Positions 6,062 through 64,000 of a DNA stretch of 64,000 bases are shown here, piece after piece. Each line of letters begins with the position of its first letter. Position 1 is the stretch's first letter. A program made the position numbers and the translations under genes. Where the stretch lies: contig CAZRSF010000017.1 in the NCBI GenBank assembly GCA_964602655.1, forward strand, positions 24,116-88,115. Direction: 5' to 3'. The stretch comes from an uncultured Candidatus Moduliflexus sp. Lineage in GTDB: Bacteria; Moduliflexota; Moduliflexia; Moduliflexales; Moduliflexaceae. The notes beneath the pieces were generated by a model that saw nothing but the letters and a program-made list of their open reading frames with translations, ran no database searches and had not been told where the DNA came from.

Positions 6062-6110
6062 TGTGATAAAAAGCTTGACGGATTCCAGAATGATTTCTAA
6101 ACGATGTTGC

Positions 6111-8776: not shown

Positions 8777-8820
8777 ATATTCCAGCCGCGAAATATACGA
8801 AAATATATCGTTATTCAAGC

Positions 8821-8849: not shown

Positions 8850-8856
8850 TTGTGGT

Positions 8857-27987: not shown

Positions 27988-28986
27988 TCAAAAACTCACG
28001 CCGACCGTCGCGCCGAAATACATCTGGCGTCCTTCGACGGTCAAATCAATCCCGGTTGCGCCGCGTCCCTCGTCCTCGCCACCGTAAAAGGATTGCGTCT
28101 GATCCCCTTCGAGATCGTAGGCGGCATAATTCGCCAGCACGGAAAGCGACCGGTTCGGCGTGATATGCCAACGAAGATCGCCGCCGATAGCCCAAAACAT
28201 TCCATCGGTCTCCCCTGTGCTTAATTTCTGACGCAGCAGATGATCATCTTCATCTTTGCATGTTGCAATCGGGCTGAAAAGGCCATAGGCATTGACATCA
28301 ACGGCGCTATTCGGCACACTGGAAGAAAAAGCGACTCCGACATACGGCACATCTATTTTTTGCTGATACGTAATGCCGGTTCCCGGCAATTGCCCCTGAT
28401 AAAATTCATCAGGATCAATTGTCCATTGCTCTCCGTTTTTAGCCTCCCAATCCCATTGTGTGTAAGAAAATCCTAACAGAACTCCCAAAGACATTGTTTC
28501 ATTTGAGGGAAGCGCGGAGAGAATATCGTACCGCACATTGATATCAAAATGCTTTCCGTCCACAGACGAATCCGACTCAGAATAGATTGCCTTTTGGCTG
28601 CCGTAATAGCCATACAGCCAATCGCTATCCTTCATCGTACCGGTCTGATCATACACTGAAACCCAGCCTCCAGCGCTGAGCGTAAAACGATTTAATGGGT
28701 GGAACGACCCAACACCACCAATGTAAAGAGTTCCGTCTAACGGCCATTCCAATTCGCTTTTCCATCCCCCATCCTGTTTTCCTTCGATAGTATAGGTCAT
28801 CTGGCCGAATTCGACAAATGAAGAGAGCCCTAAGAAGAATCCTGACGTCGTTCCTTCCTCTTCGAACAAAGATGATGCGCTCACCGGCGGAATGGAGGCG
28901 ATCTGTCCCCAACTTACGGCAGGAAAAAATAAAGAAATGAGCACAAGAATCCCGCCTGCTTGACATTGTCTGAAAATTCGCTGCAT
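27988..28986 (-). CDS. Omptin-family outer-membrane protease (peptidase A26-like beta-barrel)
   Basis: The protein has a signal peptide and segments resembling E. coli OmpT (SELEW~SQLDW, AGGW, MKDSDWL~MVDQDWM, DEDDHLL~DNDEHYD catalytic Asp/His region). It ends in the terminal aromatic …GVSF typical of OM barrels. Confidence 0.6.
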   Translation of the reverse strand: MQRIFRQCQAGGILVLISLFFPAVSWGQIASIPPVSASSLFEEEGTTSGFFLGLSSFVEFGQMTYTIEGKQDGGWKSELEWPLDGTLYIGGVGSFHPLNRFTLSAGGWVSVYDQTGTMKDSDWLYGYYGSQKAIYSESDSSVDGKHFDINVRYDILSALPSNETMSLGVLLGFSYTQWDWEAKNGEQWTIDPDEFYQGQLPGTGITYQQKIDVPYVGVAFSSSVPNSAVDVNAYGLFSPIATCKDEDDHLLRQKLSTGETDGMFWAIGGDLRWHITPNRSLSVLANYAAYDLEGDQTQSFYGGEDEGRGATGIDLTVEGRQMYFGATVGVSF

Positions 28987-29313: not shown

Positions 29314-30147
29314 TTGCAAATGAAACAACGCTTATTAGGATTATGGTTCTGTTGTCTGCTTCTGTTGTTTTCTGTGTCTTCGGGAATGGCTCAGGAAGCG
29401 CAGGAACGGCTGAAAATGTCCACCACCACCAGCACGGAAAATTCCGGGCTGCTCACCGTCCTGCTCCCGCCGTTCGAACAGGCGTTTAACGTCAAAGTGG
29501 ACGTGGTGTCTGTCGGCACGGGCAAGGCCATCGAACTTGGCGTCAATGGCGATGTGGACGTGGTGTTCGTTCATGCGCGGGAAGCGGAAGACAAATTTGT
29601 CGCCGATGGCGGCGGCGTCAACCGGCGCGACGTGATGTATAATGACTTCGTGATTTTGGGGACGGAGAATGATCCGGCAGGCGTGAAACAGGCGAAAACT
29701 GCGGACGAAGCGTTGAAAAAAATCGCCGATGCGCAGGCCACATTTATTTCACGCGGCGACAAATCCGGCACACACATGAAAGAGTTGGAAGTCTGGCAAA
29801 AAAGCGGCATCACGCCGCAAGGAACGTGGTATATGGAAGCGGGACAGGGCATGGGGGCGGTGCTGACGATGGCGAACGACAAACAAGCCTACACGCTCTC
29901 GGATCGCGGCACATATTTGGCCTTCACGGAGAAAACTTCGCTCAAAGTCGTATCTGAAGGCGATCCGGCGCTCTATAATCCGTATGGGATTATCGCGGTG
30001 AATCCGGCGAAATTCCCGCAAGCCAATTATGTGAAAGCGATGGCGTTGATTGGCTGGGTTACGTCGCCAGAAGGTCAAAAAATTATCCGTGAATTCGGCA
30101 AAGACAAATTTGGCGAGCCGTTGTTTTATCCGTTGGCAATTCAGTAG
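29314..30147 (+). CDS. Tungstate/molybdate-type ABC transporter substrate-binding protein (TupA/WtpA-like)
   Basis: The protein has a signal peptide and the motif …TTTSTENSGLL…VVSVGTGKAIELGVNGDVDVVFVHAREAE…VMYNDFVILG… characteristic of TupA-like binding proteins. Confidence 0.75.
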   Translation: MQMKQRLLGLWFCCLLLLFSVSSGMAQEAQERLKMSTTTSTENSGLLTVLLPPFEQAFNVKVDVVSVGTGKAIELGVNGDVDVVFVHAREAEDKFVADGGGVNRRDVMYNDFVILGTENDPAGVKQAKTADEALKKIADAQATFISRGDKSGTHMKELEVWQKSGITPQGTWYMEAGQGMGAVLTMANDKQAYTLSDRGTYLAFTEKTSLKVVSEGDPALYNPYGIIAVNPAKFPQANYVKAMALIGWVTSPEGQKIIREFGKDKFGEPLFYPLAIQ

Positions 30148-30197
30148 GAACAGAACCCTGCCAGGGTTTCGAACCCTGGCAGGGTTGGGCATCACCG

Positions 30198-30887
30198 ATG
30201 ACATTTCTGCTTGACGCCTTTTACGAAGCGATTCATCTGATTCTCACGTTTGACCCGGAAGTGCTGAACATTGCCGCAACTTCTGTGCGTGTGTCCAGCG
30301 TGGCGATCTTTTTCGCGTCATTAACTGCCGTTCCGCTCGGATTCATCGTGGGAATCACTCAATTTTACGGGCGTGGAGCGCTGCTGACGTTGTTGAATAC
30401 CAGCATGGCCATTCCGACGGTCGTCATCGGTTTGTTAGGGTACGCGCTCATCTCGCGGCAGGGCGTGTTTGGAGAATTCAATCTGCTTTTCACGCCAAGC
30501 GCGATGATCTTCGGGCAATACATTCTGGCCGTGCCGACGATCATGGCGTTGACCATTTCCGCCACTCAAAGCGTTGACCCGCGTATCAGAAAAACAGCGG
30601 TCGTTCTCGGCGCGAATTCATTCCAGGCGGCTATAACGATTTTGCTGGAAGCGCGCTTCGCTGTCATGGCGGCCATTATCACCGGCTTCGGGCGTATCGT
30701 CGGCGAGGTCGGCGCATCCATGATGCTTGGCGGAAATATCAAAGGGTTTACCAGAAATCTTGCGACCGCGATTGCGCTTGAAACCAGCAAAGGCGAATTC
30801 GGGTTCGGATTGGCGCTCGGCATGATTTTGCTGGCGATTGCGCTATTTATCAACATGCTGCTGCGTTTTTTTCAACACAAAGCCTGA
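30198..30887 (+). CDS. ABC transporter permease (TupB-like)
   Basis: The protein is a 229-aa polytopic membrane protein, co-directional with the substrate-binding and ATPase genes. Confidence 0.75.
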   Translation: MTFLLDAFYEAIHLILTFDPEVLNIAATSVRVSSVAIFFASLTAVPLGFIVGITQFYGRGALLTLLNTSMAIPTVVIGLLGYALISRQGVFGEFNLLFTPSAMIFGQYILAVPTIMALTISATQSVDPRIRKTAVVLGANSFQAAITILLEARFAVMAAIITGFGRIVGEVGASMMLGGNIKGFTRNLATAIALETSKGEFGFGLALGMILLAIALFINMLLRFFQHKA

Positions 30888-30930
30888 AAAGCTGTCAGAC
30901 ACGTCTGAAGTGTCTGACAGCTAAGTCGTT

Positions 30931-31959
30931 ATGATGACTTCACAGACGCCTCCAATCTTCGAGATCGAACGCCTCCACCATGCGTATGATGCGCTCGCCG
31001 CTCCGCTGCTCGACATTCCGAATTTGCAAATCTTTCCGGGCAGCATCACCTGTTTTTACGGTCCGAATGGCTCAGGGAAAACCACGTTATTCGAACTGCT
31101 CACCCTGATGCGCCGCCCACAGCAAGGGCGCATTCTGTTTCAGCAGCAAGAAATTTTCCCAAGACGGGACGGCGTGGCTGCCCTTCGCACGAATGCAACC
31201 CTGGTGTATCAAGACCCGCTTTTATTCGATACGACTGTCGAGCGGAACGTGGATTACGGTTTGCGGATGCGGGGTTTGAAACGAAATCTGCGCAAACAGC
31301 GTGTAGAAGAAGCGTTACAACTTGTCGGATTAGAAGGCTTCCAGCCTCGCAAAGCCCGTCAGCTTTCCGGCGGTGAACGCCAGCGCGTGGCATTGGCGAG
31401 AGCGTTAGCCCTGCATCCCTCCGCGCTGCTGTTAGATGAATTTTCCGCGAATGTTGACGAAAAACACCGCGCCCAGCTTGAAACAATTATCCGCCAGATT
31501 CGCGAACGCTTCGGCACGACGATTCTGCTGACCACGCACTACCTGGATCAGGCGTATCGCGTGGCGGATGAGGTACTGCATCTCATGAATGGCCGCCTGA
31601 CTGCGTCCGCGCTGACAAATGTGTTTCGCGGCGTGATTTCGCAAGAACACGGCCACGCGCATTTTTCGAACGGGCGGATTGATTTTGATGTCGTTTCGCC
31701 GCATGACGGCGCGGCGACGGTCGCGATTCCTGCCAACACGATAGTCGTGTCGCCGCATTCATTGGAATCGAGCATGAGGAACGCACTCTGCGGCAAAATT
31801 ACGCATTTGATTGATGGCGGCCATTCCGTGCATTTGAAAGTGGCTGCCGGAGAAACCCTTGATGTGACGCTGACCAAAGAATCCTATCATGACTTGCGCC
31901 TGCATCCCGGCATGGAGGTCTATCTTTATTTCAAAGCGACGGCGGTGGAAGTACTGTAA
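30931..31959 (+). CDS. ABC transporter ATP-binding protein with a C-terminal TOBE (Mop-like) domain
   Basis: Walker A GPNGSGKTT, signature LSGGERQRV and Walker B LLLDEF are present. The C-terminal ~120 aa form a TOBE-like domain. Confidence 0.85.
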   Translation: MMTSQTPPIFEIERLHHAYDALAAPLLDIPNLQIFPGSITCFYGPNGSGKTTLFELLTLMRRPQQGRILFQQQEIFPRRDGVAALRTNATLVYQDPLLFDTTVERNVDYGLRMRGLKRNLRKQRVEEALQLVGLEGFQPRKARQLSGGERQRVALARALALHPSALLLDEFSANVDEKHRAQLETIIRQIRERFGTTILLTTHYLDQAYRVADEVLHLMNGRLTASALTNVFRGVISQEHGHAHFSNGRIDFDVVSPHDGAATVAIPANTIVVSPHSLESSMRNALCGKITHLIDGGHSVHLKVAAGETLDVTLTKESYHDLRLHPGMEVYLYFKATAVEVL

Positions 31960-32058: not shown

Positions 32059-33012
32059 TTACCGCTCAATGCACTCTTTGACGGCGAGGCGCAGAAACCA
32101 GGTCTGTTTGCCATGCGGCGGGAGCGTGCTGGACATGTTTCGGGCTTTCGACAGATCAGGCTGATCCATCGCGGCGGTGGCCGGTTCGAGAGCGACGTTA
32201 TACTGATGCTCCCACCAGCCTTGATTGAACCAGACGCCGAGATAACGGACAACATCCGGTGGAAAATTGAGATGAAGCGAAAGATTCCTGCCCGGATCGC
32301 TCAATCCGCACCATCCCTCCGACATCGGCGCGGCGAAATAGTATTTCTGGCGTCCCAGGCCATCTGGCGCGGCGAGCGTGGCGAGATCAACGACGCGGCC
32401 ATCTTCAAGCGTCGCGTTAGGAAAATCGTACTCGCGTCCATATTCCCGCAGCGGTTCGCCGGAATAGGCATTCAGAATCTTCGCCATCGCCGGAGGCAGC
32501 AGCAGGCGCGTCCCCGGCGTGAGGTTGAACAACGGGTGCGCTGCCCAGAGGTAATCTAACGGAAAGGGTGAAAGATTGGCTGCGGCATACGCGATTTCCA
32601 GAACGTTGTCGTTCAGGGAGACCGTTTTTTCGAGCAGATACGGCAAGCGGACGCCATTGACCCACAAACGCAAACGTTCTCCAGCGATTTCATAATGCCA
32701 GGGGAGCGACCAGACTTCGCCATGATCCGGCAGCAGCGTACCGTCCCAGACGCCGCCCGCATAACGGCAGGCGTTGATCGTCGGGAACATTTCGTCGAAC
32801 CCGAAAGACTGTGTCCTGCCGAATGGCTGACCGTATTCGGATTTCGGGAATTTCGCGTCCGATTCCTGCCAGAGCAATTCGGCCTCACGCGGCTTATAGA
32901 CGAGCGAAGCGATTTTGGAACCCCATTGCGGCAGAATCGTGGCGCGAAGTTCGGAATTCTCCAGCACGATGCCGTCAACGTCTTTATAGGTTCCGTAGGA
33001 AATTTTGCACAT
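32059..33012 (-). CDS. Aldose-1-epimerase (galactose mutarotase)-like superfamily protein
   Basis: The protein is beta-sandwich-like with a conserved His/Glu pattern. The assignment is tentative. Confidence 0.45.
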   Translation of the reverse strand: MCKISYGTYKDVDGIVLENSELRATILPQWGSKIASLVYKPREAELLWQESDAKFPKSEYGQPFGRTQSFGFDEMFPTINACRYAGGVWDGTLLPDHGEVWSLPWHYEIAGERLRLWVNGVRLPYLLEKTVSLNDNVLEIAYAAANLSPFPLDYLWAAHPLFNLTPGTRLLLPPAMAKILNAYSGEPLREYGREYDFPNATLEDGRVVDLATLAAPDGLGRQKYYFAAPMSEGWCGLSDPGRNLSLHLNFPPDVVRYLGVWFNQGWWEHQYNVALEPATAAMDQPDLSKARNMSSTLPPHGKQTWFLRLAVKECIER

Positions 33013-33062: not shown

Positions 33063-36000
33063 TCAACGCCAGTAGGTCTCGCCGATCATCGCGAGATGCT
33101 GCGCCGCGCCCTGATGATTGACATCTGACTGCGTCACGAACTCCAATTCCCGCCGTGCTTGATCAGGCTTGCCAAGCCCTAAATAGCCTAAACCGAGCAG
33201 ATAATGACAGAGAATCCGATTGCGGTGATTCAGGTCTTCGTCAAAAATCAACAAATCCGGCAGCGACACGGCGAAATAATCAATGCTCGGCTCTGCAAAA
33301 AGCTGCTGTTCCGCGTAATCAATCAGCGCGTGAAACCGGCTGCGAGCGCGATCTTCCTGGCCGAGTTTTTCGAACGCCAATCCTTGATAAAAGATTTGTT
33401 CCGGGGGTTGATCGTTGTAAAACATTGCGGCGGACGGGCGTTCCGCGCCGCGATACGCCTGAGCGAACGAGTTTTCAGCGCGAGCCTGATCCCCTGCTTG
33501 CTGAAATGCGCAGCCTTCCAAATAATAGAGATCATTTTCCGATGCGCCATACAGCTTGCCTTCGCCGAGATTCTGCGGATAGGTTTTGGCGCGGTCGAGC
33601 CAGTCAAGCGCCTGCTCGAATTTGAGGGCTTTCAACGCCTGTTTTGCTAAGCCGAGATGACAGGCGACGTATTGCCCCGACACTTTGCCTTCGCCCCCTT
33701 CCCAGGGGTGAAATTTCCGCGCCGCAATCAGCGTTCTGGCGGTGTCGTATTGTTCAAGCTGATTATACAGCGCGGCGCGTTCCAAATAGAGATCGTCGCG
33801 CAATTCCACTAATGGAAGGTGGCCTTCCAAAAACGCCAAACGCTCTTGCGCCGGGCGATTCAGCTTTTTATAGAGTTGATTCAGTTCCATGAACACCCGC
33901 GCATCCTGCGGATTCAGCGCAAACGCCTTTTCCAGGGCGGCTCGCGCTTCTTCGTGATTCATCCGCTTGTTGTAATACGCCAACGCCAAATTCCGGTGCG
34001 TGGTCGGGAAATGCGGGTCAAGCTCACGCGAGGTTTCCCAGCAGCGGATCGCGTCGTCATACTGCCGCCGGTCATACCAGAAATTGCCGAGATAGTAGAA
34101 CGCTTTCGCGTCCGTCGGATTAAATTCTTTCACCGCTTCCAGCGCCGCGACAGCTTCGAGATGATTCGGAAAGCAATAATCCGGCTTCGCATGCGCCGCT
34201 TTTTGATAGCGCTCCGCAGCGGCGGCATCATGCCCGCGCTGCCACTCGAAATAGCCGAGATAGTAATAGATCATTGGATAGGTCGTGTCGGCGTGTTCGT
34301 CGGCAATGACGCGGGAAAGGAGGTCAATCGCCTCATCAAACAGCCCGGCGGCGGCATAATCGAGCGCATATTCGATATGCGTGTGCGGGTCGTTGCGCAT
34401 GGCGCGTGTCAGCGCTGCGACTTCCTGCGCGGCTTCGGCAGTTTTCCCCTGTTCGCGCAAGAGAAGCGCCCGCTCGTTCCAGACGCCGAAATTGAAATGA
34501 TCAAGCTCAAGTGACGCCTGCGTGAACGCCTCCGCCCGGTCGTATTGCCCCAAATGCCGCAAAATCGCGACGTTCAGATGGCGGCCTTTGTGATTCTGCG
34601 TGTTGCGAGAGAGCGAGCGCTCAATCAATTCCAATGCCAACGCGAATTTTTGCCGGGATGCGGCGATTTGCGCGAGCGCGAAATAGCCGCTGTCCTGCCA
34701 CGCGCCGTTCCAGACGCTTTTGAAAAAGGCGTCGAACGCCTCGTCAAGCTTCCCCTGAATTTTCAGGCTGAGGCCGAGATTGTAATACGGCTCGCCGTCA
34801 TAGGGATTCGGATTGCGCTGCGTCAACGTCTTGATGGCGCGGCGGAAATAGGCTTCGCTGTCCTGAAATTGCCCGTGCCGCAAGAGCCAGAGGCCAAGCG
34901 CGTTGTTATTGCGAATATCCCCCGGATCGCGTTTCAGCGCTTCTTGATAGTACGCCGTCGGATCGTAGGTCGCATGGCGGTATTGTTCCAAATGCAGCCC
35001 GGTCAGATACAATTGCTCCGTCGAAGGGAGTTCCTCCGGCGGCAGCGCCGACTTCGCTGAATCTGGAAGCGGCTTTTTTTCAGGCGTTTCAGGTTGATAA
35101 GAGACTAACAACACGCCCTCTTCGGTTGTCACGGAAACGCGCAAATTTTCAGCGTGTTCGCCTGCCGACAATTCGCAGGAGCGGACAAATATTTGCTCCG
35201 GCGAGACATCAACCGTTTTTTCGAAATAAACCTGAGACGCGCTTTGCAGCGTGATGGTCAGGTTGCGATACGCGGCGGTGACATAGATGCTGACAGTCGC
35301 AGACGCACCAGTGATGTCAAGATTGACGAGCGCGTCGGCAGTCGCGTTTTTCACGACGCCAATCGAATGATATGGCAGAAAATATTGATGGAAAATCTTC
35401 TCTTCACACGGCTGAATCCAGCTAAAATCAGGCTGATTGTCGGTATAAACGCCGGTCATCAATTCGATGTACGGGCCGTCCTCGTCTGTCAAATTCCGAT
35501 CCCACGCCTGCCCGAAATCGCCACAGCCCCAAGTCCACTGCTTTTTGCCAGGGGAAATGTGGTGATCCGCGACATGCAGCACGCCTGCCTGCACGCTGTG
35601 ATCATAGCCGCCGACAAAGTCGTATTTCGACTGAATCGCCATGTAGGAGGTCGGCACGGGGATATTTTTATAGCGGGAAATATCCACGCCAGCGGAGTAA
35701 TCCATTTTGTAATACGTGCCGGTGGCGATGGGGAAGCGGGAGACATCGCGCTTGCCGTGATCAAACACGGCGTGAACGTCGGGCGGAAAGACCGATTGAT
35801 AGTCGTCGTTGACCGACACCGCCGGGTTTGCCCACCAGAGGAAATGCTGCGGCATGGTGGTGCGGTTATACAGTTTGCCGGTGATTTTCAGGTAGGCTTT
35901 GTCGGGAAAGAGCGTGAAGCCCGCCATGCCTTTGGTGCGGAACATCCGCTCCACTTCGCTGACCCAGACGGTCGCGCTGCCGTCGTCATGCGTTTCGAAC

Positions 36001-36419
36001 GCGAAATCTACCGGCTCGAACGTGCTGGGGCGATGATGCTGCGGCCAGTTGAATTCGATGCCGCCGGAAATCCAGGGGCCGGTCAGCCCGACTAACGCCG
36101 GTTTCACGACCTGATTATAGTAGATAAAATGCCGCTTCGCGATTTTATCGTATGCCTCATGCACGCGCCCGCCGAGTTCCGGCAGAATCATGAGTTTGAG
36201 ATAGCGGTTTTCCAAAAACAGGGCATGATACGCTTTTTCGACTTTTTCATCCGAGATGTGTTCGATAATCGGATGCGGATAGACCACGCCGCTGCTTCCC
36301 TGATAGACCCGCTTTTCGAAAAACATCGGGTTTTTATCCGGTTCGCCAATAGGATAGGTCGGCAGCGTAATATCTTCTTCCCAGACGCGCACACACGAAA
36401 AATCTTCCATGATCGTCAA
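33063..36419 (-). CDS. Large (1118 aa) protein: N-terminal DUF5107-like domain plus many TPR repeats
   Basis: The C-terminal ~700 aa are TPR-like helical repeats (A..Y.LG…). The N-terminal ~400 aa resemble proteins annotated DUF5107 (glycoside-hydrolase-like), from my recollection of that family. Confidence 0.6.
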   Translation of the reverse strand: MTIMEDFSCVRVWEEDITLPTYPIGEPDKNPMFFEKRVYQGSSGVVYPHPIIEHISDEKVEKAYHALFLENRYLKLMILPELGGRVHEAYDKIAKRHFIYYNQVVKPALVGLTGPWISGGIEFNWPQHHRPSTFEPVDFAFETHDDGSATVWVSEVERMFRTKGMAGFTLFPDKAYLKITGKLYNRTTMPQHFLWWANPAVSVNDDYQSVFPPDVHAVFDHGKRDVSRFPIATGTYYKMDYSAGVDISRYKNIPVPTSYMAIQSKYDFVGGYDHSVQAGVLHVADHHISPGKKQWTWGCGDFGQAWDRNLTDEDGPYIELMTGVYTDNQPDFSWIQPCEEKIFHQYFLPYHSIGVVKNATADALVNLDITGASATVSIYVTAAYRNLTITLQSASQVYFEKTVDVSPEQIFVRSCELSAGEHAENLRVSVTTEEGVLLVSYQPETPEKKPLPDSAKSALPPEELPSTEQLYLTGLHLEQYRHATYDPTAYYQEALKRDPGDIRNNNALGLWLLRHGQFQDSEAYFRRAIKTLTQRNPNPYDGEPYYNLGLSLKIQGKLDEAFDAFFKSVWNGAWQDSGYFALAQIAASRQKFALALELIERSLSRNTQNHKGRHLNVAILRHLGQYDRAEAFTQASLELDHFNFGVWNERALLLREQGKTAEAAQEVAALTRAMRNDPHTHIEYALDYAAAGLFDEAIDLLSRVIADEHADTTYPMIYYYLGYFEWQRGHDAAAAERYQKAAHAKPDYCFPNHLEAVAALEAVKEFNPTDAKAFYYLGNFWYDRRQYDDAIRCWETSRELDPHFPTTHRNLALAYYNKRMNHEEARAALEKAFALNPQDARVFMELNQLYKKLNRPAQERLAFLEGHLPLVELRDDLYLERAALYNQLEQYDTARTLIAARKFHPWEGGEGKVSGQYVACHLGLAKQALKALKFEQALDWLDRAKTYPQNLGEGKLYGASENDLYYLEGCAFQQAGDQARAENSFAQAYRGAERPSAAMFYNDQPPEQIFYQGLAFEKLGQEDRARSRFHALIDYAEQQLFAEPSIDYFAVSLPDLLIFDEDLNHRNRILCHYLLGLGYLGLGKPDQARRELEFVTQSDVNHQGAAQHLAMIGETYWR

Positions 36420-36531: not shown

Positions 36532-37497
36532 TTACGCTTTTTTGCGTTGTTTCAGTTGGTCTAACAGGATGGCGATTAACAAGATCGTGCCGCGCACAAG
36601 ATACTGATAAAACGTCGGCACATTCCACAAATTCAAGACATCTTGCACCGTTCCCATAATCAGTACGCCAACAATGACGCCGCTCATCGTGCCGACGCCG
36701 CCGGAAAGCGACACGCCGCCCAACACGCAGGCGGAAATGACATCCAACTCGAAGCCGATCGACGAATTGGGCTGACCGCTGGTCATGCGGGACGCGAGTA
36801 TCACGCCGCCGAACCCGGCGACAAAACCTTGCAGGGTGAAAATCACGATTTTGGTCCAATTAACATTCACGCCAGAGAGTCGCGCCGCTTCTTTATTGCC
36901 GCCGATTGCCAGCACGTTCCGACCATACGCGGTGTTGTTGAGAAGGACGCCGAAAATCGCCATAATCACGACGGTCAACAGAATCGGAACCGGAATCCCC
37001 CAAATGACATTATTGCCGATTTTAAAAAACGCCGGAATCGTGATACCGATGGCGACCGCGTTGGAAACGATCAGGCCGAGACCGCGCACGATTTGCAATG
37101 TTGCGAGGGTTGTAATCAAGGGATTCAGACCGAACTTTGCAATAAACACCCCGTTAACCAGACCGACGAGCGCTCCGGCGAGCACGCCTCCAAGCACGGA
37201 AAGAAAGACGTTGCCGGTCACATTCAATAATTTTGCGGTCAACACTCCGGCAAAGGCAACAGTCGAGCCGACGGACAGATCGACATCGCCAGCGCCAAGC
37301 ACAAACAGCATGGTAGCGGCGACCATGCCAATCGTCGTCACCGACAACAACAGGCCGTTCATATTCGTAGTCGTCAGAAAATATGGCACAAACATCGCGC
37401 ACAGCAGAAACATCACGATATATACGACAATCATGCTGGAATTCTGCCAGAGATTTCCAAAAACTTTAATTATTCCTTGTGTCTGGTTGGTTGTCAT
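36532..37497 (-). CDS. Sugar ABC transporter permease (RbsC/AraH family)
   Basis: The protein is a 321-aa polytopic membrane protein with the monosaccharide ABC permease pattern. Confidence 0.85.
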   Translation of the reverse strand: MTTNQTQGIIKVFGNLWQNSSMIVVYIVMFLLCAMFVPYFLTTTNMNGLLLSVTTIGMVAATMLFVLGAGDVDLSVGSTVAFAGVLTAKLLNVTGNVFLSVLGGVLAGALVGLVNGVFIAKFGLNPLITTLATLQIVRGLGLIVSNAVAIGITIPAFFKIGNNVIWGIPVPILLTVVIMAIFGVLLNNTAYGRNVLAIGGNKEAARLSGVNVNWTKIVIFTLQGFVAGFGGVILASRMTSGQPNSSIGFELDVISACVLGGVSLSGGVGTMSGVIVGVLIMGTVQDVLNLWNVPTFYQYLVRGTILLIAILLDQLKQRKKA

Positions 37498-37568: not shown

Positions 37569-39059
37569 TTACGCTGTCGGCAGCGCCATCGAAAGCAGAC
37601 GTTCTTGATTCACTTCGGCTCGCGGGACTTCACCGGTGATCGCGCCTTCGCGCATGACGATCACCCGGTCTGCAACGCCCATCACTTCGGGCAAATCGCT
37701 TGACACAAACACAACTGCTTTGCCTTCTTCGGCTAATTGATACATCAACTGATAAATTTCATATTTTGCGCCTACGTCAATGCCGCGCGTCGGCTCATCC
37801 AATAAAAACACGTCCATTGTTTCGCTTAACCAGCGCGCTAAAATAACCTTCTGCTGATTTCCGCCGGAAAGATTGCCGAGCAGTTGTTCTCGCGACGGGG
37901 TTTTTATCTGGAGCTTTTTAATGAAATTATCGGTATTTTCGCGTTCCTTCTGTTTATCCAGAAAGAAGCCCGCGCGTAAAAAATGGCGGCGGCAACTGAT
38001 ATTCAGGTTTTCATTGACGGAGCGAATCGGAATAATCCCTTCATACTTTCGATCTTCAGGGCTGAGACAGATACGCTGACGAATCGCTGTAATCGGGTTC
38101 GTAATCGTCGCCAGTTTGCCATGAACGCGTACTTCTCCGGATGTCAAACGTTCTGCGCCGAAGAGCAGTTTCAGCAGTTCGGATCGCCCTGCGCCGACCA
38201 AGCCGAAGAAGCCGACGATTTCACCGCGTGACACGCTGAAGGAGACCTCTTTTTTCAAGCCTTTGCCCCGCAGGTTTTTCACCTCGAACATCGTTTCCCC
38301 GGTTTTGCGCGGGCGATAGCCGTACACATCCTTGATTTCCCGCCCAACCATGCGCTGCACTAACAAATTATGCGTGACGTTCGACATGTCCGTAAAGGTT
38401 TCGATATGCTTCCCGTCGCGAAAGACGGTCACGGTATCGCAAATTTTAAAAATTTCTTCCATGCGATGAGACACGTAAATAATCGCTTTTCCCTGATTTT
38501 TGAGGTTGTCTATAATTTTGAATAATTGCGTCACTTCGCGCGCTGACAGCGAACTGGTCGGTTCGTCGAACGCGATGATTTCTGCGTTATGCAGCAACGC
38601 TTTGCCGATTTCGATCATCTGGCGCTGGCCGATTGACAGGTTTTTCACTTTTGTGGCCGGATCAAAATTTTCCATCAATAATTCGATTTGTTTCTGCGCG
38701 ATCTGGCGCATCTGGCGTTTATCAATAAAGACCGATTTTTTCGGATAGTTCCCGATCATAAAATTTTCAGCGACGGTCATATCGGGAACAAGGTTCAATT
38801 CTTGATAAATGATAGCGATTTTGGCATTCAGCGCGTCGCGGGTAGTCTGAAAAACGTGTTTTTGCCCGCCGATGACAACATCGCCTGACGTTGGAGTATA
38901 CGCCCCGCTGAGAATTTTCAACAGCGTGGATTTGCCCGCGCCATTTTCTCCGACGAGGCCGTGAACGCTGCCTCTGGCAACGCCGAACGACACGTCGTCA
39001 AGCGCCTTGACGCCGGGGAAAATTTTGGAAATATGCTCGAATTCCAGGAAATTTTTCAT
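37569..39059 (-). CDS. Sugar ABC transporter ATP-binding protein with duplicated NBDs (RbsA/XylG type)
   Basis: Two ABC domains each carry a Walker A (GENGAGKST, GLVGAGRSE) and a signature motif. The start was chosen at the ATG at 39059. Confidence 0.9.
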   Translation of the reverse strand: MKNFLEFEHISKIFPGVKALDDVSFGVARGSVHGLVGENGAGKSTLLKILSGAYTPTSGDVVIGGQKHVFQTTRDALNAKIAIIYQELNLVPDMTVAENFMIGNYPKKSVFIDKRQMRQIAQKQIELLMENFDPATKVKNLSIGQRQMIEIGKALLHNAEIIAFDEPTSSLSAREVTQLFKIIDNLKNQGKAIIYVSHRMEEIFKICDTVTVFRDGKHIETFTDMSNVTHNLLVQRMVGREIKDVYGYRPRKTGETMFEVKNLRGKGLKKEVSFSVSRGEIVGFFGLVGAGRSELLKLLFGAERLTSGEVRVHGKLATITNPITAIRQRICLSPEDRKYEGIIPIRSVNENLNISCRRHFLRAGFFLDKQKERENTDNFIKKLQIKTPSREQLLGNLSGGNQQKVILARWLSETMDVFLLDEPTRGIDVGAKYEIYQLMYQLAEEGKAVVFVSSDLPEVMGVADRVIVMREGAITGEVPRAEVNQERLLSMALPTA

Positions 39060-39242: not shown

Positions 39243-40217
39243 TTACATCGAGCCCATGACTTCTTTGTAGTTGTCGCGGGTGATCAACTGACCGGCAGTC
39301 CAGATGGCTTTTTCCGGTTCTTTGCCATCTTTGATCCAGTTGAACATATTCTCAGCCGTGCCGTAACCATGCTGTTTGGCGGCTAACAGGATTGAACCCA
39401 TCAACGCGGTCGGCTCCGGTTTTTCGAATTCGGCGACCGCTTCCGTGCCATTGATACCAACGGCAATCGCTGAATCTACACTGAATTTCTGGCCTTCCAA
39501 CGCTCTGACAGCACCGATTGCGGAACTATCATTCCCACCGGCAATCACCCACAGTTTGATCTCCGCTTTTTTGGTCAGCGTGATGTTTGCTGCATTGAAA
39601 CTGCCTTCGATATCCAGAGTTTTCATCGGGGAATCGAAAATATTGGCTTCCGGCAGGCCAGCGGCTAACAAGACTTCAGTTGCGCCGTCGGTGCGTTCTT
39701 TAATCGTCGGAAGTTGATCGTAGCTCATGCGCAGGAAACCGACTTGCGTCATATCCCATCCGCGTTTTTTGGCTTCGTCAGCAATCGCCTGTCCGACAGC
39801 TTTGCCGATATTGAAGGCAGAAATGCCCATGTGATGCACATCTTCCATCGGTTTGCCATCGGAGCCGATAAAACGGTCGTCAACGCTCATTACTTTCAGT
39901 TTGGCGGCTTCGGCTTTTGCGACAATGGCCGGTCCAAGTTTCACGTCAGGCGTGCAAATGACAAAACCCTGAGCCTGCTGAGCGGCCAGGTTATCAATTG
40001 CGGCCAACACTTTTTCGCCATCGGTTGCGCCGATTTTGATCAACTCGAATCCTAATGTGTCTGCGGCTTGCTGCGCGTATTTCCATTCATCCTGGAACCA
40101 CGGTTCATCCGGCTGTTTCACTAAAAAGCCGATTTTGATTTTGTCCGCGGCAATCGCGAAACTGCATAATGATAATACCAACAAGCTGACAATTGATAAT
40201 GTGAACAACTTCTTCAT
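39243..40217 (-). CDS. Periplasmic sugar-binding protein (RbsB/AraF-like)
   Basis: AAGGAGAAGAAGACC precedes the ATG at 40217. The protein has a signal peptide followed by a PBP-type I fold. Confidence 0.85.
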   Translation of the reverse strand: MKKLFTLSIVSLLVLSLCSFAIAADKIKIGFLVKQPDEPWFQDEWKYAQQAADTLGFELIKIGATDGEKVLAAIDNLAAQQAQGFVICTPDVKLGPAIVAKAEAAKLKVMSVDDRFIGSDGKPMEDVHHMGISAFNIGKAVGQAIADEAKKRGWDMTQVGFLRMSYDQLPTIKERTDGATEVLLAAGLPEANIFDSPMKTLDIEGSFNAANITLTKKAEIKLWVIAGGNDSSAIGAVRALEGQKFSVDSAIAVGINGTEAVAEFEKPEPTALMGSILLAAKQHGYGTAENMFNWIKDGKEPEKAIWTAGQLITRDNYKEVMGSM

Positions 40218-40360
40218 GGTCTTCTTCTCCTTGAAGTGCGGCTGGTGTTCATGACTTACGGCAGTGCCGTAACGAACCCAGTCCATCATAATGTCCCCCT
40301 CATTCGAAAGGGCGTGAACCTCTGACCAAGATGTGCAACCATACGACAACATTTTTATAA

Positions 40361-40376
40361 GCAAGAGCGATGCCAA
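40361..40376 (-). promoter_or_regulatory. Candidate sigma-54 (-24/-12) promoter TGGCAT-N5-TTGCT driving the sugar ABC operon
   Basis: The minus strand reads TTGGCATCGCTCTTGCT about 140 nt upstream of the binding-protein start. An NtrC-type activator gene lies divergent to it. Confidence 0.5.
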
Positions 40377-40481: not shown

Positions 40482-40527
40482 ATGTGTCATAGTGACACAT
40501 GCAATAGGGGACATGTGTCACTATGAC
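40482..40527. promoter_or_regulatory. Two TGTGTCA-N3-TGACACA-type palindromes, candidate enhancer (UAS) sites
   Basis: ATGTGTCATAGTGACACAT and ACATGTGTCACTATGAC are spaced about 30 bp apart, between the sigma-54 promoter and the divergent regulator gene. Confidence 0.4.
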
Positions 40528-40590
40528 CCAAACTTATAAGGAACGCAATCCTGCCAGGGGTTCAAACCCTGGCAGGGTTTTTCCAGAAAT

Positions 40591-41931
40591 ATGATCAAAA
40601 CGCTGTTGATTGTTGATGATAAAATCAAATTGTGCGACGCGCTGGCGCAAGCGTTCCAGCAACAGGGCTACCATACGGTGATCGCGACGAATCGGGAAGA
40701 CGCAATTACCGCCTGCGCGTCGCACCCGATTCATGTCGCGCTGTTAGACATCAAGCTTGGCGCGCAGAATGGAGTCGAAGTGTTAGGCGAACTGCTGCAA
40801 CTCCATAAACACCTGCCAGTCATTATGATGACCGGCCATGCGTCGGTGGAAACCGCCGTCCAATCGCTGAAACTCGGCGCATTCGATTATGTTAAAAAGC
40901 CGCTGGATTTTCATCAGCTTGCGAATTTGGTGGAAAACGCGATCCGTCTTTCCGCGCTGAGCGAGGAGAATCAGCAATTGAAAGATCAGTTGATTGACGA
41001 ACTTTCGCCGCGCCTGATTACGCAGACGCCGAAAATGCTGGAAGTCGCGGAAAAGGCCAAAAAACTCGCGGTGACTGATCTGCCAGTGTTGATTTTTGGT
41101 GAGAATGGTACAGGAAAAGAGGTGATTGCTGATTTTCTGCACATCAATTCGCCGCGCAATTCCCGTAAAATGCTGAAAATTAACTGCGCCGCATTCCCTG
41201 AAAGTCTGTTGGATAACGAGCTATTCGGCCATGAAAAAGGGGCGTACACCGGGGCAGATGCGCAGTTCAAAGGCGTGTTCGAGCGGGCGGATCAAAGCTC
41301 GCTCTTTTTGGACGAAATCGGCGACATGCCGCTGACGATTCAGGCAAAAATCCTGCGGGCGCTGCAAAACCGTGAAATCCGGCGACTTGGCGGCAGTCAA
41401 ATGATTCACATTCATGTGCGCTTTATCGCGGCGACGAATAAAGATTTGCAAAAATTGATTGAAAAAGAACGCTTTCGCGAAGATTTGTATTATCGCTTGA
41501 AGGCGGCGGTCATCAAGATTCCGCCGCTGCGCGATCGCAAAGACGATCTTCCGTTGCTGGCGCATCATTTTCTGACCGAATTTGCCCGCGCCACCTCGAC
41601 GCCGGTTAAAACCCTCAGCGACGCAGTCCGCCGGGAATTCTCCCGCTATGATTGGCCGGGAAACGTGCGGGAATTCAAAAATGTCGTGGCGTATGCCGTC
41701 GCGATTGCCTCTGGCGACACGATTCAACTTGACGATCTTCCGCCCGATTTTTTAGAGTTCCCTGAAGAAATTGTGCCGGATAACATGATTGATGAAGTAG
41801 AAAAAAATCTGATTATCAAAATGCTGCAAAAAACCGATTATAACAAAAAACGCACGGCGGAACTGCTGAATATCGGCAGAAAAACCCTCTACCGCAAATT
41901 AGAAAAATATGGCATTACCGTCCCAGAATAA
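40591..41931 (+). CDS. Sigma-54-dependent response regulator (REC, AAA+ sigma-54 activator, Fis-type HTH; NtrC family)
   Basis: The REC domain has the phospho-Asp context (VALLDIKLG). Walker A GENGTGKE, the GAFTGA-like loop and a C-terminal HTH are present. Confidence 0.9.
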   Translation: MIKTLLIVDDKIKLCDALAQAFQQQGYHTVIATNREDAITACASHPIHVALLDIKLGAQNGVEVLGELLQLHKHLPVIMMTGHASVETAVQSLKLGAFDYVKKPLDFHQLANLVENAIRLSALSEENQQLKDQLIDELSPRLITQTPKMLEVAEKAKKLAVTDLPVLIFGENGTGKEVIADFLHINSPRNSRKMLKINCAAFPESLLDNELFGHEKGAYTGADAQFKGVFERADQSSLFLDEIGDMPLTIQAKILRALQNREIRRLGGSQMIHIHVRFIAATNKDLQKLIEKERFREDLYYRLKAAVIKIPPLRDRKDDLPLLAHHFLTEFARATSTPVKTLSDAVRREFSRYDWPGNVREFKNVVAYAVAIASGDTIQLDDLPPDFLEFPEEIVPDNMIDEVEKNLIIKMLQKTDYNKKRTAELLNIGRKTLYRKLEKYGITVPE

Positions 41932-43756
41932 CGCCGATTCGCTGATCGAGTTCGTCAATGTCAGTTTGAACTATGGCGCAACGAAAGCGTTATCGCATCT
42001 CAATCTTGTCATTCGTCGCGCCGAAATTCACGCGATTGTCGGGGAACATGGGGCGGGGAAATCGTCGCTCGGCATGATGTTATGCGGGTTATTGAAACCC
42101 CAGAATGGTCACATCATTATAGAACGGCAACCCTATCGCAGCCTGACGCTCCAATCTGCCCGGAAAATTGGCATTGAAATGGTGCAGCAGCAAACGCTGT
42201 CGCTGAATCCGTATTTTTCGATTGCCGATAATTTCGCGCTCGATAGCCGCCCATTGTATAAACTCTGGCGTAAAAAGCAATCGTTGCAAGCTGCCCGCGA
42301 TTTCCTGGAGCAATGGGGTTTAACGCACATTAACCCCGCTGTTCCGGTCAATACGTTGAACGTGCCGGATCAACTATTTGTTGATATTCTCAAACATCTG
42401 TATCAACGCCCCACCCTGCTGATTCTTGATGAAGCCTTAGAAAAATTGACCACTGCCAATTACAACACCATTGTCGGAATCTTGCAGCGCTTAAAACAGC
42501 AGGGGCGCTCGATCTTGCTGATTACCCACCGCATTGACGATGTGTATCAGTTGGCTGACCGGGTCAGCGTCATCAAACATGGAGAAATTTTGCTCTCCGA
42601 TGAGGTCAAAAACATTGATAAAATCAACCTGATCAAAATGGCCTATACCCAGGTATCAGAGCAACACACGGACAACCTGAATAGGGAATTTTATCAGTTA
42701 TTGAAATACAACGAGGCGATTCTGCGTAACCTGCCGGTAAATTTGATTGTTGCGGATCATGAAAACAATATCAGATTGGTGAATGACTATTGCAAGCAAT
42801 CGTTCGAACTCGATCAGGTTGCTTACATCAACAAACCGCTCGCAGAAGTCGTGACCAGCGCCAATAACGAGGTCGTTGACTTTCTCGATCACGCCCTGTC
42901 CTATCGCGAAGAACACGCCTTTTATCAAGCGCCGATTCGGGTGAATAAGCAAGAAATCATCGGTAATATCAAAACCTTCCCGGTGTATGACGGCAGCCTG
43001 TTCATGGGCACGATGCTGACCATCGAAGATGTGACCGAATACGATCAACTTCAAAAGCAAGTGGTGCTCTCCGAAAAGCTCGCTTCGGTCGGCATGTTAG
43101 CGGCAGGCGTGGCGCATGAAATCAATAATCCGCTGGAAATCATTTACACCTATTTGAGTTTCATGAAATACAAATTTCGCGGGCTGGAACTCCATAAAGC
43201 GCTGAACACGCTGCACGAGCAAATCGCCGATATTTCCAGCATCGTCAGCAATCTTCAGACGTTTTCGGATCGCCATGTCGAGAACGAAGAGGTGGATTTG
43301 AACGATGTGATTCAGAATATGCTGAACCTGTTGAAATACAACGCGAAGTATGAAAATATCGCCATTCATTTCGAACCTGAGAGCGACGACATTCTCATCA
43401 TCACGAACCGCAACGAAATCAAGCAGGTCATTTTGAACTTGCTGAAGAATAGCTTCGAGGTTATGCCATCCGGCGGCGAAATCAGGATTATCACGCGCAT
43501 TTTCGAAGAGAACGGCGGCAAAAACGTGCAGATGACGTTCCAGGATACCGGGCCGGGGATTCATGACAAAAATCCGAACAACGTGTTCTTGCCGTTTTAT
43601 TCGACGAAACACGGCAAAGGGAGCAATAACTTTGGTCTCGGCCTCTCGATCAGTTATAACATCATCAAAAAACACAAAGGGACGATTTCCGTCCAGAATC
43701 TTGAGCAAGCCGGCTGCCAGTTCACCATCACGCTGCCGCAGGCGGCGGCGAATTAG
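41909..43756 (+). CDS. Sensor histidine kinase with an N-terminal degenerate ABC-type ATPase domain, a PAS-like middle and HisKA+HATPase
   Basis: The N-terminal ~230 aa have an ABC Walker A (GEHGAGKSS) and Walker B (LLILDEA) but no LSGGQ signature motif. An H-box (AAGVAHEINNPL) and N/G1/G2 boxes follow. The gene overlaps the regulator gene by 23 nt. Confidence 0.8.
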   Translation: MALPSQNNADSLIEFVNVSLNYGATKALSHLNLVIRRAEIHAIVGEHGAGKSSLGMMLCGLLKPQNGHIIIERQPYRSLTLQSARKIGIEMVQQQTLSLNPYFSIADNFALDSRPLYKLWRKKQSLQAARDFLEQWGLTHINPAVPVNTLNVPDQLFVDILKHLYQRPTLLILDEALEKLTTANYNTIVGILQRLKQQGRSILLITHRIDDVYQLADRVSVIKHGEILLSDEVKNIDKINLIKMAYTQVSEQHTDNLNREFYQLLKYNEAILRNLPVNLIVADHENNIRLVNDYCKQSFELDQVAYINKPLAEVVTSANNEVVDFLDHALSYREEHAFYQAPIRVNKQEIIGNIKTFPVYDGSLFMGTMLTIEDVTEYDQLQKQVVLSEKLASVGMLAAGVAHEINNPLEIIYTYLSFMKYKFRGLELHKALNTLHEQIADISSIVSNLQTFSDRHVENEEVDLNDVIQNMLNLLKYNAKYENIAIHFEPESDDILIITNRNEIKQVILNLLKNSFEVMPSGGEIRIITRIFEENGGKNVQMTFQDTGPGIHDKNPNNVFLPFYSTKHGKGSNNFGLGLSISYNIIKKHKGTISVQNLEQAGCQFTITLPQAAAN

Positions 43757-57520: not shown

Positions 57521-58123
57521 TTAATAAGGAGAACGGGCGGAGTCCGGAGGACAGACAGACTCGCGCTGCTTCATGAAAATCGGCGGTGTGGTTGGGTCAA
57601 GGACAAAGACATCCGACCAGAAAATTGTTGGAATACTCGGTGTGGCATAGCGAATCACCGGCCCATCGTCATACAGCCCGACCGCGTCGGCAGCGATTGC
57701 GCCGCGTTGCAGCAAAACGTTCTCAAGACGAGCGTCTGAATCCAGCGTGAGCGTGAGACGTACCGGCGTATCTGCTTGAAACGCGATATGCGACGGCAGC
57801 GACGCGTCTGTTTCGTCCGCGATGCCCGAAAAGAAACCAGTGTCGCTGCTCTGCGTTTCTGTGTAGGTCAACAGATAGTCTCCCGCTTCAGGAATGTTGA
57901 CGCATAATAATTCGGCGCGCGCCTGCCACTCGAATTCCTGAGACGCGGCGTCCCCTGCCGCGAAACCGGACAGCGGATACGCGCCCCCCGATAAGGGCGA
58001 GATCGGCGCTTGTTCGTCATAATCCAGCGTGTTGCATCCCGGATTGACGGCAAGCAGCATCGCAAGCGCGATCCATTGGAATCGTTTTTGCCAAACACAG
58101 GTAGTTCTGTTGATATCGGTCAT
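57521..58123 (-). CDS. Lipoprotein, hypothetical
   Basis: The protein has a signal peptide with the lipobox NPGC. Confidence 0.5.
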   Translation of the reverse strand: MTDINRTTCVWQKRFQWIALAMLLAVNPGCNTLDYDEQAPISPLSGGAYPLSGFAAGDAASQEFEWQARAELLCVNIPEAGDYLLTYTETQSSDTGFFSGIADETDASLPSHIAFQADTPVRLTLTLDSDARLENVLLQRGAIAADAVGLYDDGPVIRYATPSIPTIFWSDVFVLDPTTPPIFMKQRESVCPPDSARSPY

Positions 58124-58200
58124 AAAGAAAGATTCTCCTCACAACAGAGCGTCTTTTGTCAATTGAAAAATGAGGGATTTCTTTCTCATAACCGTGTCAT

Positions 58201-58380
58201 ATAGGAGAAATGATGGAAGAGCGTTTACCGAATATTCATCCTGACGAAGTATTAGAAGAAGAGTTTTTACAACCGTTGCATATGTCAGCGTCGCGGTTAG
58301 CGCAGGCGATCCGGCTGCCGCAACGCCGATTCGAAAAGCAGCTTACGCGAATTGACCATTTTCAGAGGATGCCCGGCTGA
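58201..58380 (+). pseudogene. HigA-like (XRE-HTH) antitoxin gene remnant, truncated or frameshifted after ~50 aa
   Basis: The translation MEERLPNIHPDEVLEEEFLQPLHMSASRLAQAIRLPQRRFEKQL… matches the HigA N-terminal pattern (IHPGEILxEEFLxPLGLS…LA.ALGV) but ends at 59 aa without the C-terminal helices. No toxin gene is adjacent. Confidence 0.5.
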
Positions 58381-58539
58381 TTTATTTCTCCGCGTCAAGT
58401 CCCCACACGCGCCCATTATACGACACGCGGGCGACCGGCCTGCCGTTTTCGGTCAACTCCCCGCCCGACCAATTCCCGCCGCCGAGGTCGTACTGTTCGA
58501 TATAAGCGCGGCAGGCGGCGCTGATTTCTTTGAATTCGA

Positions 58540-63571: not shown

Positions 63572-63584
63572 AGTTCTTCTCCTT

Positions 63585-64000
63585 CTACTTTTGACGTAAG
63601 GAATCTTCTGGCATTTCGGAAAGAAACTCTCCTTCTTGCGCAAGTTTAAACTCAACAATATTATTAAAATCTGTTGCCTTAAACAAAGTTGAACAGAGGT
63701 TATCCGCATAATCAATTAATAACGGAAATCCTTTTTCTCTTTGAAACATTGCATCTCTGGCAATAATTCTTGCGGCCTGTTCGAAATAATCCTGATGTGC
63801 ATGGAAAACATAAGGACGCTGAGAGATTTTAATGATTCCAATAAGAATTTTAGAAGCTTCTTGCTTTAAAAAGTGAGTCATTCTAAGCAATTCTTCTTCT
63901 CGCCATTTGTCTTTTGCCATAAAATCTTCATTTCTCAATAATTCCATTCCAACATTTGTATGCTTTAATAAAAAATATTCTCCTGAATTTAATGCCATAC
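63585..64000 (-). CDS. Partial CDS (C-terminal ≥138 aa) of an unknown protein immediately upstream of the HerA-like gene; the 5' end lies outside the window
   Basis: The ORF is open to the window edge and ends 13 nt before the HerA start. I could assign no domain from the visible part. Confidence 0.5.
   Translation of the reverse strand, partial: MALNSGEYFLLKHTNVGMELLRNEDFMAKDKWREEELLRMTHFLKQEASKILIGIIKISQRPYVFHAHQDYFEQAARIIARDAMFQREKGFPLLIDYADNLCSTLFKATDFNNIVEFKLAQEGEFLSEMPEDSLRQK

Follow-up and report, generated by a model that had tools for sequence, protein, structure and literature searches.

A 64,000-nucleotide stretch of DNA from an uncultured Candidatus Moduliflexus species (contig CAZRSF010000017.1, positions 24,116 to 88,115; the whole stretch is referred to here as the window) carries at 41909-43756, on the plus strand, a gene for a sensor histidine kinase of 615 residues, delimited from its open reading frame and from Pfam matches. 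The gene immediately preceding it on the same strand (40591-41931) encodes an NtrC/AtoC-type sigma-54 response regulator with REC, AAA+ and HTH_8 domains in Pfam, and its stop codon overlaps the kinase start by 23 nt. Divergent from this pair, across an intergenic region of 373 bp, lies a minus-strand operon encoding a sugar ABC importer: a periplasmic sugar-binding protein with a signal peptide (39243-40217), an AraG-like CUT2 ATPase with two nucleotide-binding domains (NBDs; 37569-39059) and an AraH-like permease (36532-37497). The N-terminus of the kinase is itself an ABC NBD homolog, and the comparative analysis described below outlined a conserved cassette in which such kinases are associated with a sigma-54 regulator and a CUT2 operon.

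An ABC nucleotide-binding domain within a histidine kinase

The domains of the kinase follow one another as an NBD1-like ABC domain, a linker, PAS, DHp and a catalytic ATPase domain. The NBD occupies residues ~10-240 (41936-42628, plus strand), as supported by Pfam ABC_tran, by NCBIfam and by predicted local distance difference test (pLDDT) values, and residues 28-177 match ABC_tran (PF00005) with an E-value of 5.7e-20 and 72.7 bits against a cut-off of 25. The PAS domain (residues 269-377; 42713-43039, plus strand) is detected both in Pfam, where PAS_4 scores 27.3 at residues 272-377 (cut-off 23.1) and PAS 24.2 at residues 269-372 (cut-off 22.6), and in a structural model. The HisKA (residues 396-454, with the phospho-acceptor His403) and HATPase_c (residues 501-612) domains, at 43094-43744 on the plus strand, both exceed their Pfam gathering scores. 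The boxes expected of the HisKA class are present, with H403 in HEINNPL, an N box reading LNLLKNS, a G1 box reading DTGPG and a G2 box reading GLGL. A search for transmembrane segments returned none, the maximum Kyte-Doolittle value over 19-residue windows being 1.28, in the DHp helix. With no hydrophobic segment and with all four boxes in place, the protein is a soluble and presumably active histidine kinase; having no membrane segment, it cannot sense periplasmic sugar directly.

The AlphaFold2 model, built from a 25-sequence alignment of the family, has a mean pLDDT of 75.7, with values of ~90 for residues 10-240, and presents a beta-sheet of the PAS-like kind in the PAS region. Foldseek searches with this model matched the NBD to LptB, MalK, MetN and other ABC NBDs, with TM-target values of up to 0.87, and the C-terminal two-thirds (PAS-DHp-CA) to the LOV-kinase YF1. 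The kinase also matched 430 ABC chains in the PDB, with E-values of up to 1e-5. The original prediction, made from the sequence of the window, had proposed a degenerate ABC NBD followed by a PAS-like segment and a standard HisKA/HATPase core, and had named an unrelated P-loop domain as the finding that would speak against it. The Pfam, NCBIfam, PDB and Foldseek matches agree in assigning the N-terminus to the ABC NBDs, which excludes an unrelated P-loop domain, and the PAS, HisKA and HATPase_c domains all lie above their Pfam cut-offs.

The NCBIfam best matches of the kinase N-terminus were LsrA, YtfR, AraG, GguA, XylG, AlsA, MglA and RbsA, all of them CUT2 monosaccharide ATPases, and these matches cover the first half of the profiles (positions ~3-250 of 500). 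In agreement with this placement, a BLASTP comparison of the kinase with the adjoining AraG-like ATPase aligned it to NBD1 (28% identity, E-value 9e-32), with no significant match to NBD2, and the nearest matches outside the family among 1.84 billion representatives were ATPases of ~500 residues with two NBDs, aligned at residues ~2-250. These matches indicate that the kinase N-domain derives from NBD1 of CUT2 sugar ABC ATPases. Furthermore, the LIKMAYTQ segment of the kinase linker aligns with the inter-NBD MVGR segment of the cognate ATPases, which suggests that the family arose through replacement of NBD2 by PAS, DHp and CA domains.

The motifs that make up an ATP site are present in the kinase NBD. 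They comprise the Walker A motif (GEHGAGKSS; as VGEHGAGKSS, residues 44-53, 42038-42067, plus strand), the Q-loop (MVQQQ, with Q94), the Walker B motif with its catalytic Glu (LLILDE, residues 170-175, 42416-42433, plus strand; LLILDEA, with E175) and the H-loop (ITHR, with H207). At the signature position, as aligned to AraG NBD1, the kinase reads LNVPDQ (residues 150-155; 42356-42373, plus strand) instead of LSGGQ, whereas NBD1 of the adjoining AraG-like ATPase reads LSIGQRQ. To assess how these motifs fare across the family, conservation was scored in 25 members at 48-65% identity and in 75 representatives reaching down to ~30% identity. In the narrower set, Walker A, Q94 and residues L171, I172, L173, D174 and E175 are invariant, with L170 nearly so. 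The signature is replaced throughout, following the pattern LN(L/V)(S/P)(D/E)(R/Q) with the consensus LNLSDR among the 25 members, and LSGGQ occurs in none of the 75 divergent representatives. The Walker A Lys is retained in 74 of these 75; the catalytic Glu is missing in ~6, all among the most divergent, and the Q-loop Gln likewise decays only in the most divergent branches. Retention of Walker A, Q-loop and Walker B and loss of LSGGQ had both been read from the single sequence, and neither is confined to the window, the loss holding throughout the family.

The conservation of Walker A and its Lys, of Q94 and of LLILDE indicates that the ATP site is under purifying selection. All the residues required for ATP binding in cis are kept, and the domain is probably competent for hydrolysis. 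On account of the family-wide absence of the LSGGQ signature, the kinase NBD is best regarded as an ABC NBD homolog and not as a canonical transport ATPase. Loss of the D-loop was also considered as a distinguishing trait and rejected: the kinase reads EKLT at this position, yet NBD1 of the cognate ATPase is itself non-canonical there (SSLS).

CUT2 ATPases such as AraG, RbsA, XylG, MglA, LsrA and YtfR have an NBD1 homologous to the kinase N-domain, with Walker A, Q-loop, Walker B and H-loop in common, but they carry two NBDs in a chain of ~500 residues, whereas the kinase has a single NBD fused to signalling domains. In a set of 11 cognate CUT2 ATPases, NBD1 presents canonical Walker and H-loop motifs with a weak signature (LSxGQxQ), and NBD2 combines a canonical signature, LSGGNQQK, with a degenerate Walker A (GxGR) and lacks the H-loop His. 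The ATPase of the window follows this division, with canonical Walker motifs and a weak signature in NBD1, and with GAGRS at Walker A, no H-loop His and LSGGNQQK in NBD2. By its motifs, the kinase NBD corresponds to the 'Walker half' of the single consensus ATP site of a CUT2 ATPase. Its own signature, the element that an NBD1 lends to the degenerate site with its partner NBD, has eroded beyond the weak LSxGQxQ of CUT2 NBD1. An NBD1-like domain is precisely the half that complements an NBD2 of this kind.

The kinase belongs to a fairly large family. It shares a cluster at 90% identity with GAK52012.1 of Candidatus Moduliflexus flocculans, so that the window stems from a near relative of that organism. 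A word-indexed search returned more than 2,000 relatives, of which the best 120 are all full length and each carry ABC_tran, HisKA and HATPase_c in Pfam. Searching with residues 1-390 of the kinase identified ~95 clusters at 50% identity that match NBD, linker and PAS. The complete clusters among them all measure 600-646 residues, and the output is therefore always a kinase. The family is distributed over Moduliflexota (KSB3), Spirochaetota and Desulfobacterota, with named members in KSB3, Spirochaetia, Desulfomarina and the cultured Marispirochaeta aestuarii; database labels for these proteins read only 'histidine kinase' or 'ATP-binding cassette domain-containing protein'.

Association with a sigma-54 regulator and a CUT2 operon

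A genome scan with a full-length alignment of the kinase caught generic kinase-core patterns, and only 8 of the 80 loci it returned held true members. The metagenomes were therefore rescanned with an alignment of NBD, linker and PAS, which yielded a census of 70 metagenomic loci with a family kinase. Two loci from Acidoferrales (L028 and L038) that had resembled full-length matches were excluded, since in each of them the kinase and the ABC ATPase are separate adjoining genes.

The census outlined a recurrent gene arrangement. A sigma-54 regulator lies directly upstream of the kinase, on the same strand, in all 55 assessable loci. Where at least 5 kb of upstream sequence was available, a two-NBD CUT2 ATPase was found within 10 kb in 36 of 37 loci, and an ATPase or a BPD_transp_2 permease in all 37; the contig of the sole locus without the ATPase ends 1.2 kb past the kinase, and a sister contig has the ATPase downstream. 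Individual inspection of 15 contexts, one of them rearranged, located a CUT2 operon beside the kinase in every case. In addition, a single 10 Mb genome encodes three paralogous cassettes, each with a sigma-54 regulator followed by a kinase and each facing a different CUT2 operon. An arrangement of this regularity is far beyond chance. Lack of co-conservation between kinase and transporter had been put forward beforehand as a possible refutation, and the counts for operon, regulator and ATPase point the other way.

The window itself presents this arrangement in full. The response regulator shows the features of the NtrC family, with Response_reg, Sigma54_activat (221.8 bits) and HTH_8 domains, the GAYTGA motif at residue 217 and GENGTGKE. 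The ATPase scores 797 bits against the NCBIfam AraG equivalog (cut-off 689) and the permease, a BPD_transp_2 protein, 447 against AraH (cut-off 378). The binding protein was searched for an AraF-type assignment; it matches Peripla_BP_1 only generically and reaches no equivalog score. These matches bear out the divergent operon of the original prediction, which comprised a binding protein, an ATPase with duplicated NBDs and a permease of a monosaccharide importer. A protein of 1118 residues with DUF5107 and TPR domains in Pfam (33063-36419, minus strand) is probably encoded by the last large gene of the operon, and is kept downstream of the same transporter in two further loci (L002 and L087).

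The intergenic region contains a match to the sigma-54 -24/-12 promoter, TGGCATCGCTCTTGCT, at 40360-40375 on the minus strand, which faces the binding-protein gene and lies ~130 nt upstream of its ATG. It shows the exact GG-N10-GC geometry of such promoters, whose wider consensus reads TGGCAC-N5-TTGCW. This is the sole exact match in the window, with 0.22 expected and at least one match in 19 of 100 shuffles, so that taken alone it is weak evidence. Equivalent elements recur in related loci: in 38 of 48 census loci, with 0.033 expected per region, a -24/-12 match was detected ahead of the regulator gene on the other strand, directed toward the transporter operon. Two tandem dyads lie further upstream, TGTGTCATAGTGACACA at 40483-40499 (TGTGTCA-N3-TGACACA) and TGTGTCACTATGACCCA at 40514-40530 (TGTGTCA-N3-TGACCCA), both of them candidate upstream activating sites. 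Their centres are 31 bp apart, they lie ~130-160 bp from the -12 element on its upstream side, and an AT-rich tract separates them from the TGGCATCGCTCTTGCT promoter; similar TGTGTAA...TTACACA dyads were found in L002, L004 and L006. Dyads and promoter are laid out as in a classical NtrC-type enhancer, and we infer that the dyads at 40483-40530 are the sites bound by the regulator. The motif, the dyads upstream of it and its conservation across related loci combine to designate 40360-40375 as a predicted sigma-54 promoter. A promoter and two TGTGTCA-type palindromes had been anticipated upstream of the operon; the palindromes were located as described, and the promoter element was confirmed at a position one base away from the 40361-40376 first given for it.

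The data hence indicate that the kinase, the sigma-54 regulator and the CUT2 operon with its predicted sigma-54 promoter form a conserved cassette. As the regulator, the ATPase and the promoter recur together across genomes, regulatory wiring that ties this two-component system to the neighbouring sugar importer is well supported by comparative genomics.

Two related loci depart from the common layout. In L086 (JGI Ga0366841_1001195, 802-10845), which encodes a 65%-identical relative, an insertion of ~7 kb with a ROK regulator, a PHP-like protein and a CUT1-type ABC transporter separates the sigma-54 regulator from the NBD-kinase, and the CUT2 operon abuts the 3' end of the kinase gene; the cassette can therefore be rearranged. 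In L064 (2189-15937 of CAWGAA010000002.1, a Spirochaetota metagenome-assembled genome), two divergent pairs of regulator and NBD-kinase stand back to back, and each pair has a CUT2 ATPase and a permease of its own at its flank. These two kinases are ~30% identical to the kinase of the window, and their NBDs resemble the transporter ATPase (33-36%) more closely than they do the NBD of the window kinase.

Other features of the window were recorded in the course of the analysis. A near-perfect palindrome of 33 nt, with 16-nt arms 1 nt apart, occupies 40547-40579, stopping 12 nt short of the start codon of the response regulator; neither a sigma-70 promoter nor a terminator was called there, and the palindrome could be an autoregulation operator or an mRNA hairpin. 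Downstream of the Ara-type transporter, 32059-33012 encodes a protein with a weak match to aldose-1-epimerases. An omptin-family outer-membrane protease gene (27988-28986, minus strand) lies beside a molybdate/sulfate-type ABC importer (29314-31959, plus strand) made up of PBP_like_2, BPD_transp_1 and an ABC_tran protein with a TOBE domain. Finally, at 58001-64000 the GC content falls to 0.36-0.38, versus ~0.50 elsewhere, and the genes are all on the minus strand. They encode a HerA-like ATPase (61922-63715, DUF87/HerA_C), a 712-residue protein with two GHKL ATPase domains (59783-61921) and a 444-residue protein with no Pfam match (58540-59874). This stretch has the look of an island gained by horizontal transfer, possibly one that encodes a HerA-associated defence system.

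Input to the kinase and competing explanations

The arrangement of the cassette suggests an output pathway in which the kinase would phosphorylate the sigma-54 response regulator, and the phosphorylated regulator would bind the two dyads at 40483-40530 and activate the promoter at 40360-40375. This promoter would in turn drive the genes for the binding protein, the AraG-like ATPase, the AraH-like permease and the DUF5107 protein. Given that every paralog serves a single transporter, the signal must be specific to that transporter or to its sugar.

For the input, we tentatively prefer a reading that falls a little short of being probable, in which the kinase NBD acts like an NBD1, binding ATP and contacting the transporter through its coupling helices or through NBD2. 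The ATP-loaded domain would sense the state of its cognate transporter by physical contact, and substrate-dependent movements of the transporter would be relayed via the conserved linker and PAS to the kinase core. Two routes of contact can be envisaged. The two NBDs of a kinase dimer might sit on the coupling helices of the permease homodimer in a signalling-only complex, or the kinase NBDs might pair with the signature-bearing NBD2 of the ATPase. Contact is favoured by the distribution of variable positions, since the most variable part of the family comprises residues ~111-131 in the helical subdomain of the NBD, and in ABC NBDs the helical subdomain usually contacts membrane partners. It is also favoured because the NBD1-like domain would complement NBD2, with its LSGGNQQK signature and its degenerate Walker A and H-loop. 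In addition, the two-fold symmetry of the permease homodimer would match that of a kinase dimer, and docking of the kinase NBD on the transporter is plausible.

The first route can be developed into an ABC 'transceptor', in which the signature-less NBD1 copies of the kinase dimer would occupy the coupling helices of the permease homodimer and docking of the sugar-loaded binding protein would trigger autophosphorylation. Such a complex would amount to a transporter with its motor subunit swapped for a kinase. We consider this elaboration possible and rather doubtful.

Several observations weigh against contact with the transporter. In mirror-tree comparisons (Spearman r), the divergence of the kinase NBD follows that of the kinase core (0.84) and of the regulator (0.75), but hardly that of the permease (0.17) and only weakly that of the ATPase (0.42). 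The same Ara-type transporter, with ATPases 74-76% identical, serves two kinase lineages whose NBDs are 44-48% identical. A search for residues specific to the kinases of Ara-type cassettes returned 7 columns, within the 0-12 obtained with control groupings, and is uninformative. The mirror-tree results lend no support to a specific co-evolved interface, although docking on a conserved coupling helix would still be compatible with them. Furthermore, a Lys five residues past the Walker A Lys, present in at least 80% of the cognate NBD1s, is a Met in the kinase family; this Lys presumably corresponds to the MalK Arg that forms a salt bridge with the EAA loop of the permease. Every cassette also encodes a complete two-NBD ATPase, leaving no NBD position obviously vacant, and the PAS domain could be the true ligand sensor. 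The possibility that the kinase NBD serves as the missing ATPase of the transporter was considered separately and rejected, as each cassette has its own two-NBD ATPase.

Foremost among the alternatives is a cytoplasmic sensor that makes no contact with the transporter. The PAS domain would bind the imported sugar or a metabolite, the NBD would act as an ATP/ADP-responsive gate or clamp on the kinase, and the adjacency of the genes would reflect their regulon. KdpD offers a model for such a gate, its N-terminal P-loop domain modulating the kinase. The kinase is soluble, a bona fide PAS domain lies between NBD and DHp with a centre that varies among paralogs in the 25-sequence alignment, and the residues of the ATP site are conserved, all as this explanation would have it. 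The reassortment of two-component modules and transporters, with NBD divergence that does not track the transporter, also fits it. What it leaves unexplained is the occurrence of a CUT2-NBD1-derived input domain only beside CUT2 transporters, as well as the conservation of the replacement signature LNLSDR. NBDs, moreover, make poor energy sensors as a general matter, isolated NBDs binding ATP far below cellular concentrations. We regard this alternative as realistic, if on the unlikely side.

An improbable further alternative holds that the kinase NBD also regulates transport, as a feedback device that would compete or pair with the ATPase (for instance with NBD2) and throttle uptake while reporting occupancy. 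The complementary motifs of kinase NBD1 and ATPase NBD2 are in keeping with it, as are the conserved catalytic Glu, Q-loop and H-loop, which would imply hydrolysis with a signature supplied in trans. On the other hand, the two NBDs of the ATPase are joined covalently, which would make displacing one of them costly, and co-variation with the ATPase is no higher than the r of 0.42 given above. Lastly, an inactive relic, retained as a folding or dimerisation scaffold with no nucleotide-dependent role, would account for the missing signature in every family member and for the lack of the Q-loop Gln or catalytic Glu in some divergent ones, but is very improbable in view of the Walker A Lys in 74 of 75 representatives and of the invariant Walker A, Q94 and LLILDE in the core family at 48-65% identity.

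Relation to known transporter-linked sensors

The systems that come closest to the cassette in logic are the Bce modules of Firmicutes (BceRS-BceAB), in which the signal of the kinase depends on an ABC transporter whose expression the kinase controls, through sensing of transporter activity or flux (PMC9169098; bioRxiv 10.1101/2020.02.28.969956; PMC3023708). Bce modules are defined by a kinase with two TM helices that senses within the membrane and by a BceB-type permease with a large extracellular domain. The window kinase has no transmembrane segment and its neighbouring permease is of the BPD_transp_2/AraH-like and not of the BceB type, which places both outside the Bce type. BceS, one of the intramembrane-sensing kinases, lacks an NBD and makes contact with the permease BceB, whereas the window kinase is soluble and carries an NBD. 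BceAB is a peptide-antibiotic resistance transporter, in contrast to the binding-protein-dependent sugar importer of the window, and the Bce regulator is of the OmpR type and not sigma-54 dependent, unlike the sigma-54 type regulator found here.

Fusion of a transporter-derived domain to the N-terminus of a PAS kinase has a precedent in CbrA and CrbS, which combine an SLC5 symporter domain, STAC, PAS and a histidine kinase (PMC5715377). The fused module in these proteins is the membrane permease of a secondary transporter, whereas in the window kinase it is a soluble ABC ATPase subunit. CbrB, too, is an NtrC-type sigma-54 activator.

In the PhoR-PhoU-PstSCAB and MalK-MalT systems, the cytoplasmic NBD (PstB or MalK) is the point at which the activity state of an ABC importer is sensed, and this information passes to a regulator of the regulon to which the importer belongs. 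There, an adaptor (PhoU) or a transcription factor (MalT) binds the transporter's own NBD, and neither sensor contains an NBD. KdpD carries an N-terminal ATP-binding domain with Walker A and B motifs that modulates its signalling, and controls the operon of a transport ATPase; it differs from the window kinase in that this domain is not an ABC domain, the protein is membrane-bound and its regulator is of the OmpR type.

Among the named families of NCBIfam, the kinase core and the regulator come closest to AtoS/AtoC and ZraS/ZraR, which use the same sigma-54 output route. The AtoS match covers kinase residues 215-612 with 224 bits and the AtoC match to the regulator reaches 445 bits, with equivalog cut-offs of 646 and 714 lying far above these values. 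AtoS and ZraS reside in the membrane, sense through periplasmic or other domains and lack an NBD.

No description of an NBD-kinase fusion was found in the literature searched or in the KSB3 genome paper, an absence that is not in itself proof of novelty. The architecture had been called uncommon in the original prediction, and this holds to the extent that no description of it was found, but the family itself is fairly large. The architecture is real and conserved, an uncharacterised form of two-component sensing linked to a transporter, in which the input domain is new.

The genomes of Moduliflexota and spirochaetes are rich in genes for carbohydrate transport and signalling (PMC4312070), and the kinase family helps explain how sugar-fermenting members of these groups assign one separate regulator to each sugar transporter. 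The NBD1 copy fused to the kinase hard-wires the link between a CUT2 sugar transporter and a sigma-54 regulator. To our knowledge, sensing of ABC-importer activity is understood in a few systems (Pho, Mal and Bce), none of which has a transporter ATPase domain inside the sensor. If the NBD does contact the transporter, these kinases would offer a soluble handle on transport-coupled signalling and a natural case in which an ABC NBD has been recruited to receive a signal. Since the family is represented in the cultured Marispirochaeta aestuarii, experiments on it are feasible. The NBD-kinase cassette hence points to an unstudied link between sugar uptake and gene control.

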